Shown here one piece after another: positions 2,898 through 41,785 of a stretch of DNA of 64,000 nt. The notes beneath the pieces were generated by a model. It was not told the origin of the DNA. It did no database searches and was given only the letters and a program-made list of their open reading frames with translations. The stretch's first letter is position 1. Each line of letters starts with the position of its first letter. Source of the DNA: Escherichia coli. Its GTDB lineage: Bacteria; Pseudomonadota; Gammaproteobacteria; Enterobacterales; Enterobacteriaceae. The position numbers were made by a program, and so were the translations under genes. Location: assembly GCF_050320075.1 (NCBI RefSeq), contig NZ_CP190018.1; one strand, given 5' to 3'.

Positions 2898-2926
2898 GAA
2901 AAGGGGGCCTGAGTGGCCCCTTTTTT
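2898..2926 (+). terminator. rpsO intrinsic terminator
   Basis: aaaagggggcctgagtggcccctttttt: near-perfect GC hairpin plus T-run immediately after rpsO stop. Confidence 0.8.
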
Positions 2927-3128
2927 CAAGCTGACGGCAGCAATTCACTGGAAACTAATGTATTGTTGCTATGAATGATCTTCCGTTGCAGAGGTTCGCG
3001 CGGCTAATGAGAGGCTTTACCCACATTGGGCTGGGTTAGGGTTGTCATTAGTCGCGAGGATGCGCAGAAGATCGGGTATTAACACCAGTGCCGTAAGGTA
3101 CTGTCTAAGAAAGAGAAAGGATATTACA
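2927..3128 (+). promoter_or_regulatory. pnp promoter/leader region (RNase III-processed autoregulatory leader by established knowledge)
   Basis: About 200 nt untranslated region upstream of pnp with a TTG start; position-based call, motif not verified. Confidence 0.45.
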
Positions 3129-5264
3129 TTGCTTAATCCGATCGTTCGTAAATTCCAGTACGGTCAACACACCGTGACTCTGGAAACCGGCATGATGGCT
3201 CGTCAGGCTACTGCTGCTGTTATGGTTAGCATGGATGACACCGCGGTATTTGTTACCGTTGTTGGCCAGAAAAAAGCCAAACCAGGTCAGGACTTCTTCC
3301 CACTGACCGTTAACTATCAGGAGCGTACCTACGCTGCTGGTCGTATCCCGGGTAGCTTCTTCCGTCGTGAAGGCCGCCCAAGCGAAGGCGAAACCCTGAT
3401 CGCGCGTCTGATTGACCGCCCGATTCGCCCGCTGTTCCCGGAAGGCTTCGTCAACGAAGTTCAGGTTATCGCCACCGTGGTTTCTGTTAACCCGCAGGTT
3501 AACCCGGATATCGTCGCGATGATTGGTGCTTCCGCAGCACTGTCTCTGTCTGGTATTCCGTTCAATGGTCCGATTGGTGCTGCCCGCGTAGGTTACATCA
3601 ATGACCAGTACGTACTGAACCCGACTCAGGACGAGCTGAAAGAGAGCAAACTGGATCTGGTTGTTGCGGGTACTGAAGCCGCTGTACTGATGGTTGAATC
3701 TGAAGCTGAACTGCTGAGCGAAGACCAGATGCTGGGCGCAGTAGTGTTCGGTCATGAACAACAGCAGGTTGTTATTCAGAACATCAATGAACTGGTGAAA
3801 GAAGCCGGCAAACCGCGTTGGGACTGGCAGCCGGAGCCGGTAAACGAAGCGCTGAACGCGCGCGTTGCTGCACTGGCTGAAGCTCGTCTGAGCGATGCTT
3901 ACCGCATCACCGACAAACAAGAGCGTTATGCGCAGGTTGATGTCATCAAATCTGAAACCATCGCGACGCTGCTTGCTGAAGATGAAACCCTGGACGAAAA
4001 CGAACTGGGTGAAATTCTGCACGCTATCGAGAAAAACGTTGTTCGTAGCCGCGTACTGGCAGGCGAACCGCGTATCGACGGTCGTGAAAAAGATATGATT
4101 CGTGGTCTGGATGTGCGTACTGGCGTGCTGCCGCGTACTCACGGTTCTGCGCTGTTTACCCGTGGTGAAACTCAGGCGCTGGTTACCGCAACGCTGGGTA
4201 CTGCACGTGACGCGCAGGTTCTTGATGAACTGATGGGCGAACGTACTGACACCTTCCTGTTCCACTACAACTTCCCTCCGTACTCCGTAGGCGAAACCGG
4301 CATGGTCGGTTCTCCGAAGCGTCGTGAAATTGGTCACGGTCGTCTGGCGAAGCGCGGCGTGCTGGCAGTCATGCCGGATATGGACAAATTCCCGTACACC
4401 GTACGTGTGGTGTCTGAAATCACCGAATCCAACGGTTCTTCTTCTATGGCTTCCGTGTGCGGCGCGTCTCTGGCGCTGATGGACGCAGGTGTGCCGATCA
4501 AAGCTGCTGTTGCGGGTATCGCAATGGGTCTGGTGAAAGAAGGCGACAACTACGTTGTACTGTCTGACATTTTGGGCGACGAAGATCACCTGGGCGATAT
4601 GGACTTCAAAGTTGCGGGTTCCCGCGACGGTATTTCTGCATTGCAGATGGATATCAAAATTGAAGGTATCACCAAAGAGATCATGCAGGTTGCACTGAAC
4701 CAGGCTAAAGGTGCGCGTCTGCATATCCTGGGCGTAATGGAACAGGCGATCAACGCGCCACGTGGCGATATCTCTGAGTTCGCTCCGCGTATCCATACCA
4801 TCAAGATCAACCCGGACAAGATCAAAGACGTTATCGGTAAAGGCGGCTCTGTTATCCGTGCCCTGACCGAAGAAACTGGCACCACTATCGAAATCGAAGA
4901 TGACGGTACTGTGAAGATCGCAGCGACCGACGGCGAGAAAGCGAAACATGCTATTCGTCGTATCGAAGAGATCACTGCAGAAATCGAAGTGGGCCGCGTC
5001 TACAATGGTAAAGTGACCCGTATCGTTGACTTTGGCGCATTTGTTGCCATCGGCGGCGGTAAAGAAGGTCTGGTACACATCTCTCAGATCGCTGACAAAC
5101 GCGTTGAGAAAGTGACCGATTACCTGCAGATGGGTCAGGAAGTACCGGTGAAAGTTCTGGAAGTTGATCGCCAGGGCCGTATCCGTCTGAGCATTAAAGA
5201 AGCGACTGAGCAGTCTCAACCTGCTGCAGCACCGGAAGCTCCGGCTGCTGAACAGGGCGAGTAA
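3129..5264 (+). CDS. pnp: Polynucleotide phosphorylase (PNPase), TTG start
   Basis: ORF translation [21 protein letters not shown]...; 711 aa from TTG at 3129; C-terminal KH/S1 region. Confidence 0.93.
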
Positions 5265-5275
5265 GGTTGCCATTT

Positions 5276-5301
5276 GCCCTCCGCTGCGGCGGGGGGCTTT
5301 T
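5276..5301 (+). terminator. Putative pnp terminator hairpin
   Basis: GC-rich imperfect hairpin gccctccgctgcggcggggggc followed by tttt. Confidence 0.45.
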
Positions 5302-5372
5302 AACCGGGCAGGACGCCTTGTTAGCAACCGGGAACAGGACGTTCATTCAACCGTGGTCTTCGGGAGTGGGAA

Positions 5373-6257
5373 ATGAAGCCTTTTTTGCGCTGGTGTTTCG
5401 TTGCGACAGCACTTACGCTTGCAGGATGCAGTAATACTTCCTGGCGTAAAAGTGAAGTCCTCGCGGTACCATTGCAACCGACTTTACAGCAGGAAGTGAT
5501 TCTGGCACGTATGGAACAAATCCTTGCCAGTCGGGCTTTAACCGATGACGAACGCGCACAGCTTTTATATGAGCGCGGAGTGTTGTATGATAGTCTCGGT
5601 CTGAGGGCATTAGCGCGTAACGATTTTTCGCAAGCGCTGGCAATCCGACCGGATATGTCTGAAGTATTCAATTACTTAGGCATATATTTAACGCAGGCAG
5701 GCAATTTTGATGCTGCCTATGAAGCGTTTGATTCTGTACTTGAGCTTGATCCAACTTACAACTACGCGCACTTGAATCGCGGGATCGCATTATATTACGG
5801 CGGTCGTGACAAGTTAGCGCAAGATGATCTGCTGGCGTTTTATCAAGACGATCCCAATGATCCTTTCCGTAGTCTGTGGCTTTATCTCGCCGAGCAGAAG
5901 CTCGATGAGAAGCAGGCTAAAGAAGTGTTGAAACAGCACTTCGAAAAATCGGATAAGGAACAGTGGGGATGGAACATTGTCGAGTTCTACCTGGGCAACA
6001 TTAGCGAACAAACGTTAATGGAAAGGCTCAAGGCGGACGCAACGGATAACACCTCGCTCGCTGAGCATCTCAGTGAAACCAACTTCTATTTAGGTAAGTA
6101 CTACCTAAGTCTGGGGGATTTGGACAGCGCCACGGCACTGTTCAAACTGGCGGTTGCCAACAACGTTCATAACTTTGTTGAGCACCGATACGCATTGTTG
6201 GAATTATCGCTCCTGGGCCAGGACCAAGATGACCTGGCAGAATCGGACCAGCAATAG
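5373..6257 (+). CDS. nlpI: Lipoprotein NlpI (TPR-repeat outer-membrane lipoprotein)
   Basis: 294-aa ORF; lipobox LTLAGCS near N-terminus. Confidence 0.92.
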
Positions 6258-20969: not shown

Positions 20970-21833
20970 ATGAAACAACACCAATCGGCGGATAATTCTC
21001 AGGGCCAGCTTTACATTGTACCGACGCCAATCGGCAATCTGGCGGATATCACCCAGCGTGCGTTGGAGGTATTACAGGCCGTTGATCTGATTGCCGCCGA
21101 GGATACGCGTCACACCGGTTTATTGCTGCAACATTTTGGGATTAATGCTCGGTTGTTTGCGCTGCACGACCATAACGAACAACAAAAAGCCGAAACGCTG
21201 CTGGCGAAGCTGCAAGAGGGGCAAAACATTGCGCTGGTTTCCGATGCCGGAACGCCGCTAATTAACGATCCTGGCTACCATCTGGTGCGTACCTGCCGTG
21301 AAGCGGGGATTCGCGTGGTGCCGCTACCCGGGCCGTGTGCTGCTATCACTGCGTTAAGCGCCGCGGGTTTACCATCCGATCGTTTTTGTTATGAAGGCTT
21401 TTTACCTGCCAAATCAAAAGGCCGCCGTGATGCGCTAAAAGCCATTGAAGCGGAGCCGCGCACGCTGATTTTTTATGAATCTACCCACCGTCTGTTAGAT
21501 AGCCTGGAAGATATCGTTGCGGTATTAGGCGAATCCCGCTACGTCGTTCTGGCGCGTGAGCTGACCAAAACCTGGGAAACCATTCACGGCGCGCCCGTTG
21601 GCGAGCTGCTGGCGTGGGTCAAAGAAGATGAAAACCGTCGCAAAGGCGAAATGGTACTGATTGTCGAAGGCCATAAAGCACAGGAAGAAGACTTACCCGC
21701 CGATGCCCTGCGCACGCTGGCGCTGCTACAGGCAGAACTGCCACTGAAAAAAGCGGCGGCGCTGGCAGCAGAAATTCACGGCGTGAAGAAAAATGCGCTG
21801 TATAAGTATGCACTGGAGCAGCAGGGAGAGTGA
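20970..21833 (+). CDS. rsmI: 16S rRNA 2'-O-ribose C1402 methyltransferase
   Basis: 287-aa ORF; divergent from lpoA. Confidence 0.88.
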
Positions 21834-21882
21834 TTACAGGCGTCGCAGCAGGAATAGCGTTGCAACGCCTGTAGCAGGCGAG

Positions 21883-22650
21883 TTAACGACGACACATCTC
21901 ATCAATCATGCATGTGAAATAGTTATGCAGCCATAAAAATGAAGCCGGGATAGCGGTAGAGACTTTAGCCGTGAGAAAACGATCTGTCGCATCCTGCTTT
22001 CCTTCGCCAGTCACCAGTAACAAAACTTCGCGGGCATTGAGAATATCCTTCAGGCCTAAGGTGATCCCACGAGTCACGGGACGGCCCGCGGTTTTTAACA
22101 TCTCATGTTGCTGTGTTCTGGCATCAAGTTGACTGATATGGCAGGCCGGTTGCAGGTTTTCTCCCGGTTCGTTCAGCCCAAGATGACCGTTTTTCCCCAA
22201 TCCGAGAACGCATAAATCCAGGCCGCCTTTGCGCGCAATCAGGTTCGTTACCCGTTCGCACTCTGTCTCATTTATCTCTTCGGAGCGAAAGCTGATGAGC
22301 TGGTCTTCACGTAGCCCCAGCGGCTGCACGATATGCTGTTGTAGGAAAGTTTCGCAGGTGCCAGGCATAGTTAATGGCAGATCCACCCATTCGTCGAGCT
22401 TCACGAAGGTGAGATGGCTGACATCAACCTGCTGCTGGTGGATTTTTTCTACCAGATAATGATACGTCAGTAATGGCGTGGCTCCGGTCGCCAGGCAAAT
22501 CACGGCATCCGGTTTGCTACGGATCACGGCCAATAAATATTCGCTGGCACGTTCACTTAACGCCGTATAGTTTTCAACTTGTTGAAGGGTTTGCACAGGA
22601 TGAAATTCCTTTAGTAAAGAGGCACCACCAGACGCAGTGCCTCGTTCCAT
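21883..22650 (-). CDS. agaI: Galactosamine-6-phosphate isomerase/deaminase-like (NagB family)
   Basis: 255-aa ORF, NagB/RpiA-like; last gene of the aga cluster. Confidence 0.82.
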   Translation of the reverse strand: MERGTASGGASLLKEFHPVQTLQQVENYTALSERASEYLLAVIRSKPDAVICLATGATPLLTYHYLVEKIHQQQVDVSHLTFVKLDEWVDLPLTMPGTCETFLQQHIVQPLGLREDQLISFRSEEINETECERVTNLIARKGGLDLCVLGLGKNGHLGLNEPGENLQPACHISQLDARTQQHEMLKTAGRPVTRGITLGLKDILNAREVLLLVTGEGKQDATDRFLTAKVSTAIPASFLWLHNYFTCMIDEMCRR

Positions 22651-32559: not shown

Positions 32560-33369
32560 ATGAGTAATACCGACGCTTCAGGCGAGAAGCGAGTGACAGG
32601 CACCAGTGAGCGACGAGAGCAGATCATTCAACGCCTGCGCCAGCAAGGAAGTGTGCAGGTTAACGATCTGTCGGCATTGTATGGCGTATCTACTGTGACG
32701 ATCCGCAACGATCTGGCGTTTCTGGAAAAGCAGGGGATCGCTGTGCGTGCCTATGGCGGCGCGTTGATCTGCGATAGCACGACGCCGTCAGTCGAGCCAT
32801 CAGTGGAAGATAAAAGCGCGCTGAACACCGCAATGAAACGCAGCGTTGCGAAAGCTGCCGTTGAGTTGATTCAGCCAGGTCATCGGGTGATCCTCGATTC
32901 CGGGACCACCACTTTTGAGATTGCTCGTCTGATGCGCAAGCACACTGACGTAATTGCGATGACCAACGGTATGAACGTGGCTAATGCGTTGCTGGAAGCG
33001 GAAGGCGTTGAGCTGCTGATGACCGGCGGGCATTTGCGCCGTCAGTCGCAATCTTTTTACGGCGATCAGGCTGAACAATCGCTGCAAAATTACCACTTCG
33101 ATATGCTGTTTCTTGGCGTAGATGCGATCGATCTGGAGCGCGGCGTCAGCACGCATAATGAAGATGAAGCCCGTTTAAACCGTCGGATGTGCGAAGTTGC
33201 GGAACGGATCATCGTGGTCACCGATTCCAGTAAGTTTAACCGTTCCAGTTTACATAAGATCATTGATACTCAACGTATCGACATGATCATTGTTGATGAA
33301 GGCATTCCTGCGGATAGTCTGGAAGGCCTGCGAAAGGCTGGGGTTGAAGTGATTCTGGTCGGGGAGTGA
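32560..33369 (+). CDS. agaR: DeoR-family transcriptional repressor of the aga regulon
   Basis: 269-aa ORF with N-terminal HTH and DeoR C-terminal sugar-binding domain. Confidence 0.9.
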
Positions 33370-33423: not shown

Positions 33424-33525
33424 TCAATGGGCTTCTTCTGTCTCTCGGGTGAGGGTTTCCCAGTCGGCAGGAGGATGTCCTCTTTTTAACATTTTGCTGA
33501 ATACGGTATAGGCATCTGTTTTTTT
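33424..33525 (-). pseudogene. yhaV: Displaced 3' fragment of yhaV (last ~33 codons) separated from the gene body by IS1
   Basis: Minus-strand hand translation KKTDAYTVFSKMLKRGHPPADWETLTRETEEAH* continues in frame from the yhaV body across the IS1 target duplication. Confidence 0.8.
33518..33525. repeat. IS1 target-site duplication, left copy (gttttttt)
   Basis: Identical 8-bp gttttttt immediately flanks both IS1 ends. Confidence 0.8.
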
Positions 33526-33540
33526 GGTAATGACTCCAAC

Positions 33541-34044
33541 TTATTGATAGTGTTTTATGTTCAGATAATGCCCGATGACTTTGTCATGCAGCTCCACCGA
33601 TTTTGAGAACGACAGCGACTTCCGTCCCAGCCGTGCCAGGTGCTGCCTCAGATTCAGGTTATGCCGCTCAATTCGCTGCGTATATCGCTTGCTGATTACG
33701 TGCAGCTTTCCCTTCAGGCGGGATTCATACAGCGGCCAGCCATCCGTCATCCATATCACCACGTCAAAGGGTGACAGCAGGCTCATAAGACGCCCCAGCG
33801 TCGCCATAGTGCGTTCACCGAATACGTGCGCAACAACCGTCTTCCGGAGCCTGTCATACGCGTAAAACAGCCAGCGCTGGCGCGATTTAGCCCCGACGTA
33901 TCCCCACTGTTCGTCCATTTCCGCGCAGACGATGACGTCACTGCCCGGCTGTATGCGCGAGGTTACCGACTGCGGCCTGAGTTTTTTAAATGGCGGAAAA
34001 TCGTGTTGAGGCCAACGCCCATAATGCGGGCAGTTGCCCGGCAT
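33541..34044 (-). CDS. insB: IS1 transposase InsB (expressed as InsAB' by frameshift)
   Basis: 167-aa ORF, recognised IS1 InsB sequence. Confidence 0.9.
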
Positions 34045-34238
34045 CCAACGCCATTCATGGCCATATCAATGATTTTCTGGTGCGTACCGGGTTGAGAAGC
34101 GGTGTAAGTGAACTGCAGTTGCCATGTTTTACGGCAGTGAGAGCAGAGATAGCGCTGATGTCCGGCGGTGCTTTTGCCGTTACGCACCACCCCGTCAGTA
34201 GCTGAACAGGAGGGACAGCTGATAGAAACAGAAGCCAC
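33963..34238 (-). CDS. insA: IS1 protein InsA (transposition repressor)
   Basis: 91-aa [43 protein letters not shown]..., canonical InsA zinc-finger protein. Confidence 0.92.
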
Positions 34239-34293
34239 TGGAGCACCTCAAAAACACCATCATACACTAAATCAGTAAGTTGGCAGCATCACC

Positions 34294-34301
34294 GTTTTTT
34301 T
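34294..34301. repeat. IS1 target-site duplication, right copy (gttttttt)
   Basis: Identical to 33518..33525. Confidence 0.8.
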
Positions 34302-34664
34302 ACCGTAGGTGCGCAGCGTGTTTTCATCGTTCATCCATCCCAGAATGATGACTTTCTCTTTTTCGCTGTAACGAAAGAAGAGACGATAACGACCAGCACC
34401 AAATTTTACCCGTGACCAGTCTTTATTTTTCCCAGAGCCTAACGACTTGCCATGACGGAATGCCGGTGATGATGGATTGACCGTGATATGCTCCTCAATC
34501 ACTTTATGGACTACCGCCAATAACTTTGTGGCGGCTTTTCTCTGATAATTTTCAGGATCTTTTCCCTTTAATGTCTCGACTTCGGCAACTAAAGCGTCGT
34601 AGGTTTCCTGAAAACAGGGATGAGCATATAGCGCCCAACCATTAACCCTTTGTGGAAAATCCAT
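34294..34664 (-). pseudogene. yhaV: yhaV toxin gene (ribosome-dependent mRNA interferase of PrlF-YhaV), 5' ~123 codons; IS1-interrupted
   Basis: ORF 34272..34664 reads ...NDENTLRTYGKKT then 6 IS1-encoded residues (VMLPTY) and stops inside IS1; native C-terminus lies at 33424..33525. Confidence 0.85.
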
Positions 34665-34999
34665 TATTCGTCGTCGCCAATCTCATCATCAATGTTGACG
34701 TCCATGCCAGCGACAAGTTTCTTTCCTTGTTGAGTGTCGAATGGACGAGTTTTTTGCGGGTTGTTCTGGATATCTGCATCCAGAAAACGCAAAAATGCAT
34801 TCATAGTATGATCCTCCTGTTCATCTCCCAGTCGGCACATAAATACTTGCCCACCAGGCAGAATTTCGTAATGAATGCTGTCCTGGCCTGGCTTCAGTTT
34901 TAAGGCCTCACGCACTGGCGCGGGGATAGTTGTTTGTCCGCGTATCGTGACCTTTGATTCAGTGGTCAGTACAGCGTGAGAGCGAGCATTAGCGGGCAT
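34664..34999 (-). CDS. prlF: Antitoxin PrlF (SohA) of the PrlF-YhaV toxin-antitoxin pair
   Basis: 111-aa ORF with acidic C-terminal tail DDEIGDDE; stop overlaps yhaV start. Confidence 0.9.
   Translation of the reverse strand: MPANARSHAVLTTESKVTIRGQTTIPAPVREALKLKPGQDSIHYEILPGGQVFMCRLGDEQEDHTMNAFLRFLDADIQNNPQKTRPFDTQQGKKLVAGMDVNIDDEIGDDE

Positions 35000-41408: not shown

Positions 41409-41785
<377 letters not shown>

Follow-up and report, generated by a model that had tools for sequence, protein, structure and literature searches.

PrlF and YhaV form a chromosomal type II toxin-antitoxin system, YhaV being a ribonuclease toxin of the RelE superfamily. For the K-12 proteins, the literature describes growth arrest by the toxin and its neutralization by the antitoxin. 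According to PMC12107188 and PMC7781912, which refer to Schmidt 2007, the two proteins jointly repress their own operon, the PrlF2-YhaV4 complex binding cooperatively to the promoter. The same papers describe the allele prlF1 (citing Snyder and Silhavy 1992 and Schmidt 2007), a 7-bp duplication that cuts the C-terminus of PrlF, derepresses the operon and hyperactivates the Lon protease. Lesions in the toxin gene have also been described: when K-12 was grown in chemostats limited for nitrogen or magnesium, insertions of IS1, IS2 and IS5 and small deletions in yhaV became highly frequent (PMC5960147), and a reconstructed yhaV deletion by itself carried a fitness cost of ~8%. As to the insertion sequence, canonical IS1 is a 768-bp element with 23-bp imperfect terminal repeats and with insA and insB' joined at an A6C motif, which duplicates its A/T-rich target; these duplications are usually 9 bp long, with 8-10 bp documented (PMC3031569).

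The locus analyzed here, in a window of 64,000 nucleotides of Escherichia coli DNA (the window being the whole stretch that was analyzed), combines these elements, a complete IS1 lying within yhaV next to an intact prlF. It shares with the chemostat alleles of PMC5960147 the knockout of yhaV by an insertion sequence (IS1 in one population) while prlF is left intact. However, those alleles arose in laboratory K-12 under nutrient limitation, whereas the present one is found in natural isolates from chicken and human, sits at nt 364-371 of the gene, and is fixed in a clone. With prlF1 it has in common the operon affected and a presumably disturbed PrlF-YhaV repressor complex. Nonetheless, prlF1 alters the antitoxin and acts on Lon, whereas here the toxin is affected, PrlF is wild type, and no Lon phenotype can be inferred. 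The insertion is a clone-specific, recent, and ordinary pseudogenization of a toxin gene by IS1. Knockout of yhaV by insertion sequences is already reported in PMC5960147, and this allele is already annotated in RefSeq. Both the system, of which this locus is a decayed member, and the mechanism of its decay are familiar.

A complete IS1 and its target duplication within yhaV

The features of the interrupted gene, with positions in the window, are the following.

33526..34293, minus strand: complete IS1 of the IS1B type, 768 bp, recognized by its terminal repeats and length
33526..33548: terminal repeat IRR at the left end of IS1, GGTAATGACTCCAACTTATTGAT
34271..34293: terminal repeat IRL at the right end of IS1, the reverse complement of GGTGATGCTGCCAACTTACTGAT
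33963..34238, minus strand: insA, 91 aa, with a GTG start at IS1 nt 56
33541..34044, minus strand: insB' frame, a 167-aa ORF that encodes the catalytic portion of InsAB'
33981..33987, minus strand: A6C motif AAAAAAC for -1 programmed frameshifting, IS1 nt 307-313, joining insA to insB'
33518..33525, no strand: left copy of the target-site duplication, GTTTTTTT, identical to the right copy
34294..34301, no strand: right copy of the target-site duplication, GTTTTTTT, which on the coding strand is an A7 run in codons G121-K122-K123-T124
34272..34664, minus strand: truncated yhaV ORF, 130 aa, native residues 1-124 followed by VMLPTY
33424..33525, minus strand: 3' remnant of yhaV, codons 122-154, among them the duplicated KKT codons, and the stop, with the translation KKTDAYTVFSKMLKRGHPPADWETLTRETEEAH and then the stop

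The transposase of this element is encoded on the same strand as prlF-yhaV, and the two ends of the element agree at 18 of 23 terminal positions in a script comparison, being imperfect inverted repeats. The insA ORF matches NF050000 (IS1/IS1595 zinc-binding domain), and the NCBIfam profile for the IS1 transposase, NF033558, matches both insA and insB' (E = 6.4e-42 for insB'). A simulated -1 slip at the A6C motif yields an InsAB' protein of 232 aa free of internal stops. In the RefSeq chromosome of strain YZLc1-3, PGAP labels the element 'IS1-like element IS1B family transposase, programmed frameshift'. All the required features being intact, the element appears, by its sequence, to be transposition-competent. 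Every property of the canonical element mentioned above is shared, including the duplication of an A/T-rich target; the difference is the length of this duplication, which is 8 bp here, whereas 9 bp is the most common value.

The target within yhaV is the A-rich stretch GGT AAA AAA ACA (codons 121-124), with nt 364-371 of the gene as the duplicated site. The duplication is exactly 8 bp because the bases just beyond each copy are unlike, and the chance of eight matching flanking bases is ~1.5e-5. On the 5' side of the gene, the native part of the truncated ORF occupies 34294..34664, with 123 whole native codons followed by T124, read as ACG with AC from the gene and G from IS1, whereas VMLPTY and the stop come from the IRL of the element (34293..34272). 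On the other side, the 3' remnant lacks a start codon of its own. Both pieces are called pseudogenes by PGAP in YZLc1-3, the first one as 'missing C-terminus' and the second one as 'YhaV family toxin, missing N-terminus'. If IS1 and one repeat copy are removed, a YhaV of 154 aa is rebuilt, which matches the Pfam family Toxin_YhaV (PF11663) over residues 12-150 with E = 8.9e-54; in the NCBIfam profile search no model matched YhaV. Moreover, the 855-bp prlF-yhaV sequence rebuilt in this way is 100% identical, in a single aligned piece, to that of strain Br_112_kylling (H57), and the flanks are collinear over 24 kb, at 99.9% identity, with those of strain 1296KP. This last strain had been suspected of carrying the IS1 from an equal-length 24-kb match, which was ruled out, its yhaV being intact. 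The insertion is recent, given that the flanks have gathered no further changes and that yhaV is still intact in a strain with 99.9% identity.

This arrangement is the result of a single ordinary transposition of IS1 into yhaV with an 8-bp target duplication. An assembly error, or recombination between two IS1 copies, could be proposed instead, given that IS1 is a multi-copy element with ~22 matching places in the genome identical to the window, that such repeats are a classical cause of misassembly, and that the duplication is one base below the usual 9 bp. However, the same junctions are present in two complete chromosomes, each sequenced independently, as well as in dozens of independent contigs, strains devoid of this IS1 have collinear flanks, and the wild-type sequence is exactly regained on removal of the element and one repeat copy. 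Recombination between IS1 copies, moreover, is expected to leave no matching duplication, whereas a length of 8 bp falls within the known range of IS1 (8-10 bp). The probability left to misassembly or recombination is vanishingly small, and this reading can be taken as effectively refuted in favor of simple insertion.

These results agree closely with the original prediction, made from the sequence, which had placed a complete 768-bp IS1 at these coordinates, with insA and insB on the minus strand, between identical 8-bp direct repeats left by simple transposition. The coordinates, the ends, and the profile matches bear out the element, GTTTTTTT stands on both sides of it, and the mechanism is borne out by the duplication, by the collinear flanks, and by another strain that has precisely the uninterrupted site. 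It had also described ~123 native codons followed by VMLPTY (to which the preserved T124 is to be added), an in-frame C-terminal remainder beyond IS1 (read here as KKTDAYTVFSKMLKRGHPPADWETLTRETEEAH and a stop at 33525..33424), and the restoration of a 154-codon gene on excision, as obtained here. It further named three observations that would speak against it: a reference yhaV naturally ending near codon 123, the absence of the 33-codon remainder, and unlike flanking 8-mers. Instead, the reference YhaV has 154 aa, the remainder is present, and the 8-mers are identical.

The shortened toxin and the operon around it

A complete toxin of this family would cover residues 12-150 of PF11663 with a RelE-like fold, whereas the present ORF ends after 124 native and 6 foreign residues. 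From its sequence, the prlF-yhaV locus is a decayed member of the PrlF-YhaV type II toxin-antitoxin systems, in which the incomplete toxin is the only departure from a full module. Conservation was read from a 60-sequence alignment of the YhaV family, with 25 invariant positions. Five of these (D125, Y127, P140, W143, and L146) fall within the 30 missing residues, as do F130, M133, L134, and P139, which are nearly invariant in that alignment. In addition, in an AlphaFold model of YhaV built on the family alignment (mean pLDDT 91.7, pTM 0.88), two helices of the folded domain, 126-135 and 143-153, both lie within the lost segment.

Searches of the PDB by sequence, whether started from YhaV or from the profile of its family, gave no solved relative, and for this reason folds were compared on the predicted model. 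The closest solved folds are those of the RelE/ParE-superfamily proteins PfiT, RelE, and HigB2 (Foldseek E from 1e-4 to 1e-2). The catalytic tyrosine of RelE (Y87) lies in the helix that follows its last strand. By analogy, this suggests that the invariant D-A-Y that opens the equivalent helix of YhaV may have the same role. The likeness between Y127 and Y87 is one of topology and conservation, since the alignment of the YhaV family profile to the E. coli RelE sequence is non-significant (probability 0.12), a result that led us to drop a residue-level equivalence of the two tyrosines.

Having lost the two C-terminal helices along with nine conserved positions, the truncated YhaV most likely has no ribonuclease activity and is probably unstable, a reading that we hold with good confidence on the grounds of the sequence and the predicted model. 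Some residual activity, or binding to PrlF, by the 130-aa protein is possible. A stronger version of this idea would be that the shortened YhaV is still a working toxin, at least in part, under the control of PrlF, the locus being a functional module. The N-terminal helices, the entire β-sheet, and the basic or conserved core residues R85, K87, R92, R94, R118, and Y120 are in fact kept in the 130-aa protein, the translational coupling of yhaV to an intact prlF is unchanged, and the alignment to RelE is too unreliable to prove that a catalytic residue has been lost. However, two confidently modelled helices disappear, together with five positions that are invariant and four that are nearly so, the Pfam domain extends to residue 150, and full-length proteins of the family retain the segment. 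Also, many independent alleles, natural and from the laboratory, cut yhaV at or before the same point, a pattern that fits a tolerated loss of function. A toxin still at work is consequently improbable, and an inactive YhaV is the reading followed below.

Upstream and downstream of the interrupted gene, the following features are found.

34664..34999, minus strand: prlF, intact antitoxin gene, 111 aa
35036..35064, minus strand: sigma-70-like promoter, candidate for the prlF-yhaV operon (TTTGCA, 17-nt spacer, TATAAT)
32560..33369, plus strand: agaR, intact gene for the aga operon repressor, a 269-aa ORF convergent with yhaV

The operon has the antitoxin gene first, and the stop of prlF and the ATG of yhaV have base 34664 in common (an overlap of 1 nt). 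PrlF scores 168.6 bits against the NCBIfam equivalog NF007429 (cut-off 125), which covers residues 1-111, and corresponds to WP_001551693.1 in PGAP, the same protein being present in 1296KP, where yhaV is intact. The candidate promoter was assigned by its agreement with the consensus, which at 10 of 12 positions is the closest in this region. On the other side of the element, agaR is WP_000072187.1 in PGAP at the corresponding position of the identical genome, and 156 bp separate its stop (33369) from the IRR end of IS1. An intact prlF at 34664..34999 had been predicted, as had a distance of about 150 bp between IS1 and the 3' end of the convergent agaR, and both hold. It had also been proposed that the locus encodes an orphan antitoxin, acting as an autorepressor, beside a truncated toxin: an intact prlF and a shortened toxin ORF are indeed found, and the orphan and autorepressor part, although reasonable, goes beyond what sequence can tell.

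The course of events is then read as follows. An intact IS1 transposed once into codons 121-124 of yhaV, duplicating 8 bp. With the start region of prlF-yhaV unchanged, a 130-aa protein would be made (residues 1-124 of YhaV plus VMLPTY), and the start-less 3' remnant is expected to stay untranslated. PrlF would still be produced, with no functional toxin to neutralize. Given that the repressor described in PMC12107188 and PMC7781912 is a complex of PrlF with YhaV, and that the YhaV partner would not work here, autorepression may be weakened. A weaker repression could in turn lead to more prlF transcript and to read-through into the co-oriented IS1. Finally, the resident intact element would be positioned to promote deletions of agaR and the aga genes, as in other strains (see below). 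Taken as a whole, this explanation (insertion, inactive truncated toxin, PrlF devoid of a working toxin, a possibly weaker autorepression, and a deletion-prone IS1) is considered highly probable.

Distribution of the allele and deletions bounded by IS1

The locus prlF-yhaV is near-universal in E. coli, being present in 5161 of 5426 complete genomes (in 5132 of them over 80% of its length or more). The full arrangement with IS1, on the other hand, was found in only two of the 5426, YZLc1-3 (chicken feces, China) and Ec-U3 (human), the chromosomes of which in RefSeq are 100% identical to the window over a 24-kb stretch. The exact 130-aa product (P0121), which has NCBI protein accessions, is encoded on 67 public contigs, and two draft contigs (L023 and L024) show zero mismatches to the window and break exactly at the IS1 junction. 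Two chromosomes, 67 contigs, and drafts that break at the junction indicate that the allele marks a circulating clone and is neither a one-off event nor an assembly error. The junction between IS1 and yhaV can serve directly as a PCR marker of this clone, which is found in poultry and in humans.

A truncated yhaV adjoining an IS1, in one orientation or the other, with no target duplication and with prlF intact, is found in at least 13 further complete genomes (among them F829, JP538, MB50, 2017-02-1CC, CFS3246, E89, NRZ99027-2, WCHEC025985, and BKQWHE). The break points in yhaV are at nt 64, 87, 93, 222, 291, 301, 326, and 337, the far end of IS1 lies in agaB, agaC, yraH, yraI, or yraJ, and 5-15 kb of aga/yra DNA are missing. 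Two more deletions bounded by IS1 stop within agaR and leave yhaV intact, in strains 2018-05-5CC (agaR nt 698) and PSJ-07 (nt 752). A comparison of the junctions shows that MB50 and 2017-02-1CC have the yhaV junction in common and differ on the far side, while NRZ99027-2 and WCHEC025985 agree at yraJ and differ on the yhaV side. Junctions shared on one side are the signature of stepwise adjacent deletions mediated by insertion sequences (PMC11708052).

Unlike these strains, in which aga/yra DNA is gone and no duplication is seen, the window holds the whole aga cluster together with a clean duplication. An arrangement such as that of the window could be the starting state for deletions of this kind. 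However, for some of them the IS1 was clearly anchored at the yraJ end, and the deletion ran from there into yhaV.

Recurrent hits on the A-run of yhaV, selection, and chance

The A-run GGTAAAAAAAC, which corresponds to nt 361-371 of yhaV, has been hit independently at least three times. In a short-read contig from SRR10272194, IS1 is inserted at the identical nucleotide in the opposite orientation (GGTAAAAAAAC followed directly by GGTAATGACTCC), and the product ends in VMTPTY. An inversion between IS1 copies was evaluated as the source of this ending and rejected, given that internal recombination cannot swap the end that adjoins yhaV and that the background of this contig differs from the window at 53 of 6372 positions. 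In two other assemblies, of a third background, an IS66-family element has its own 8-bp duplication, GGTAAAAA, at nt 361-368, and the yhaV product ends in GKK followed by the stop. Three independent insertion-sequence events, in three backgrounds, thus fall within 11 bp of each other. In addition, frameshift alleles (P0031 and P0133) are found in the same A-run.

One interpretation is that the A-run is a true mutational hot spot at which the toxin is repeatedly inactivated, with loss of YhaV favored in some niches and the resident IS1 serving as a launch pad for aga/yra deletions; as a whole, we regard this as unlikely. If the hot spot were true, it would be the counterpart in natural populations of the repeated knockouts of yhaV in the laboratory, and it would bear on the debate about whether selection maintains chromosomal toxin-antitoxin systems. 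A related proposal is that the present insertion was selected because loss of the toxin is adaptive, the A-run being a preferred route, and is not a neutral accident. In agreement with selection, yhaV knockouts and small deletions repeatedly rose under nitrogen and magnesium limitation (PMC5960147), the three insertions in three backgrounds and the frameshifts converge on one run, and the allele is now present in many isolates. However, in the same chemostat study the yhaV deletion is costly by itself, and according to its ~8% cost the loss of yhaV is not obviously beneficial, the allele being perhaps a neutral or mildly harmful hitch-hiker. Moreover, prlF-yhaV is kept in the great majority of the complete genomes, and the clonal spread could itself be hitch-hiking.

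Chance must also be considered. A crude estimate (~65,000 chromosomal IS1 places in 5418 genomes, multiplied by 1e-4 of the genome) leads to an expectation of ~6 IS1 copies in the 465-bp gene, which is of the same order as observed. Also, the searches were designed around IS1 and yhaV and are hence biased towards the pairing. With biased searches and ~6 chance copies near the number observed, the claim that IS1 is enriched at yhaV was rejected for now. Altogether, we consider selection for the loss of the toxin rather doubtful, and the recurrent hits on the A-run amount to a modest lead.

Ordinary insertion into the toxin gene remains the reading adopted here. It illustrates clearly how a chromosomal toxin-antitoxin module can decay by an insertion-sequence hit, although it is of little import beyond strain typing. 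The carriers, on the other hand, would constitute a natural test of PrlF acting with no working YhaV, for instance regarding derepression of the operon and Lon-related effects. As a separate observation on this operon, in strain MS196-1 it is prlF that carries an IS1, at its 3' end and with a duplication of the usual 9 bp, and yhaV is intact.

Insertions and frameshifts at the yhaV A-run

A second IS1 insertion is found at the window's exact insertion nucleotide in yhaV, with the orientation reversed, in the locus L010 (Logan SRR10272194 contig 183, 6001-6396). Here, the IRR end adjoins the 5' part of yhaV, the product (P0018) ends VMTPTY, and the site corresponds to window 34294-34301. Because the flanking background differs from that of the window at 53 of 6,372 positions, this IS1 is an independent insertion into the same 8-bp target.

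Also, an IS66-family element of ~2.7 kb, carrying TnpA, TnpB and TnpC ORFs, interrupts yhaV in L021 and L022 (CP169397.1 and JBHFKN010000001.1, about 3361-6105). Its target is GGTAAAAA (yhaV nt 361-368; window 34297-34304), with its own 8-bp duplication, and the resulting yhaV product has 123 aa and ends GKK*. These loci represent a third lineage, with 59 mismatches in 3,364 nt against L010. The 123-aa sequence (P0122) occurs in 221 index blocks, a tally that also takes in window-lineage drafts broken at the IS1 junction, such as L023.

The homopolymer run at this site is as follows.

34295-34301: plus-strand T7, read as A7 in codons 122-124 of yhaV

Frameshifts within this run are present in the public proteins P0031 (…GKKQMPIPYSVKC) and P0133 (…GKNRCLYRIQQNV…), and some of these alleles could be sequencing errors.

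Deletions bounded by IS1

In other E. coli chromosomes, recurrent IS1-bounded deletions lacking a target duplication run between yhaV or agaR and the aga/yra genes (L003, L004, L008, L009, L015, L016, L017, L019 and L020, and likewise L002 and L013), their detection being biased by query design. The near end lies at yhaV nt 64, 87, 93, 222, 291, 301, 326 or 337, or alternatively at agaR nt 698 or 752, and the far end in agaB, agaC, yraH, yraI or yraJ, prlF being intact in every listed locus. Since strain pairs have one junction in common and the other different, the junctions indicate that these deletions arose as stepwise adjacent events.

Altered antitoxin and extended toxin alleles

In strain MS 196-1 (NZ_CP146681.1; L014, about 3658-4425), prlF carries an IS1 in its 3' end (nt 268-276, 9-bp duplication TCCTTGTTG) and yhaV is intact. 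PGAP calls a PrlF-family protein of 118 aa with an altered C-terminus, reminiscent of prlF1, a C-terminal truncation allele. This locus is left with a modified antitoxin beside an intact toxin.

Stop-loss YhaV variants of 199-200 aa (public proteins P0001, P0002, P0006, P0012-P0014 and P0020-P0025) gain ~46 residues read from the yhaV-agaR spacer (…TEETDLMVFTMPAERIRVDQ…) and are spread over several clusters, complete chromosomes among them.

Other features of the window

At 20970-22650, rsmI and agaI are separated by only ~50 bp; the yraHIJK fimbrial operon, which sits between these genes in other strains (e.g., MB50 and JP538), is missing, and the aga/kba cluster is complete, with 13 genes. 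Four Rfam matches at the gathering threshold are all, as expected, usual in this part of the chromosome.

972-1042: naRNA4
2555-2669: S15 leader
2899-3070, minus strand: SraG
41409-41785: RNase P RNA (rnpB)
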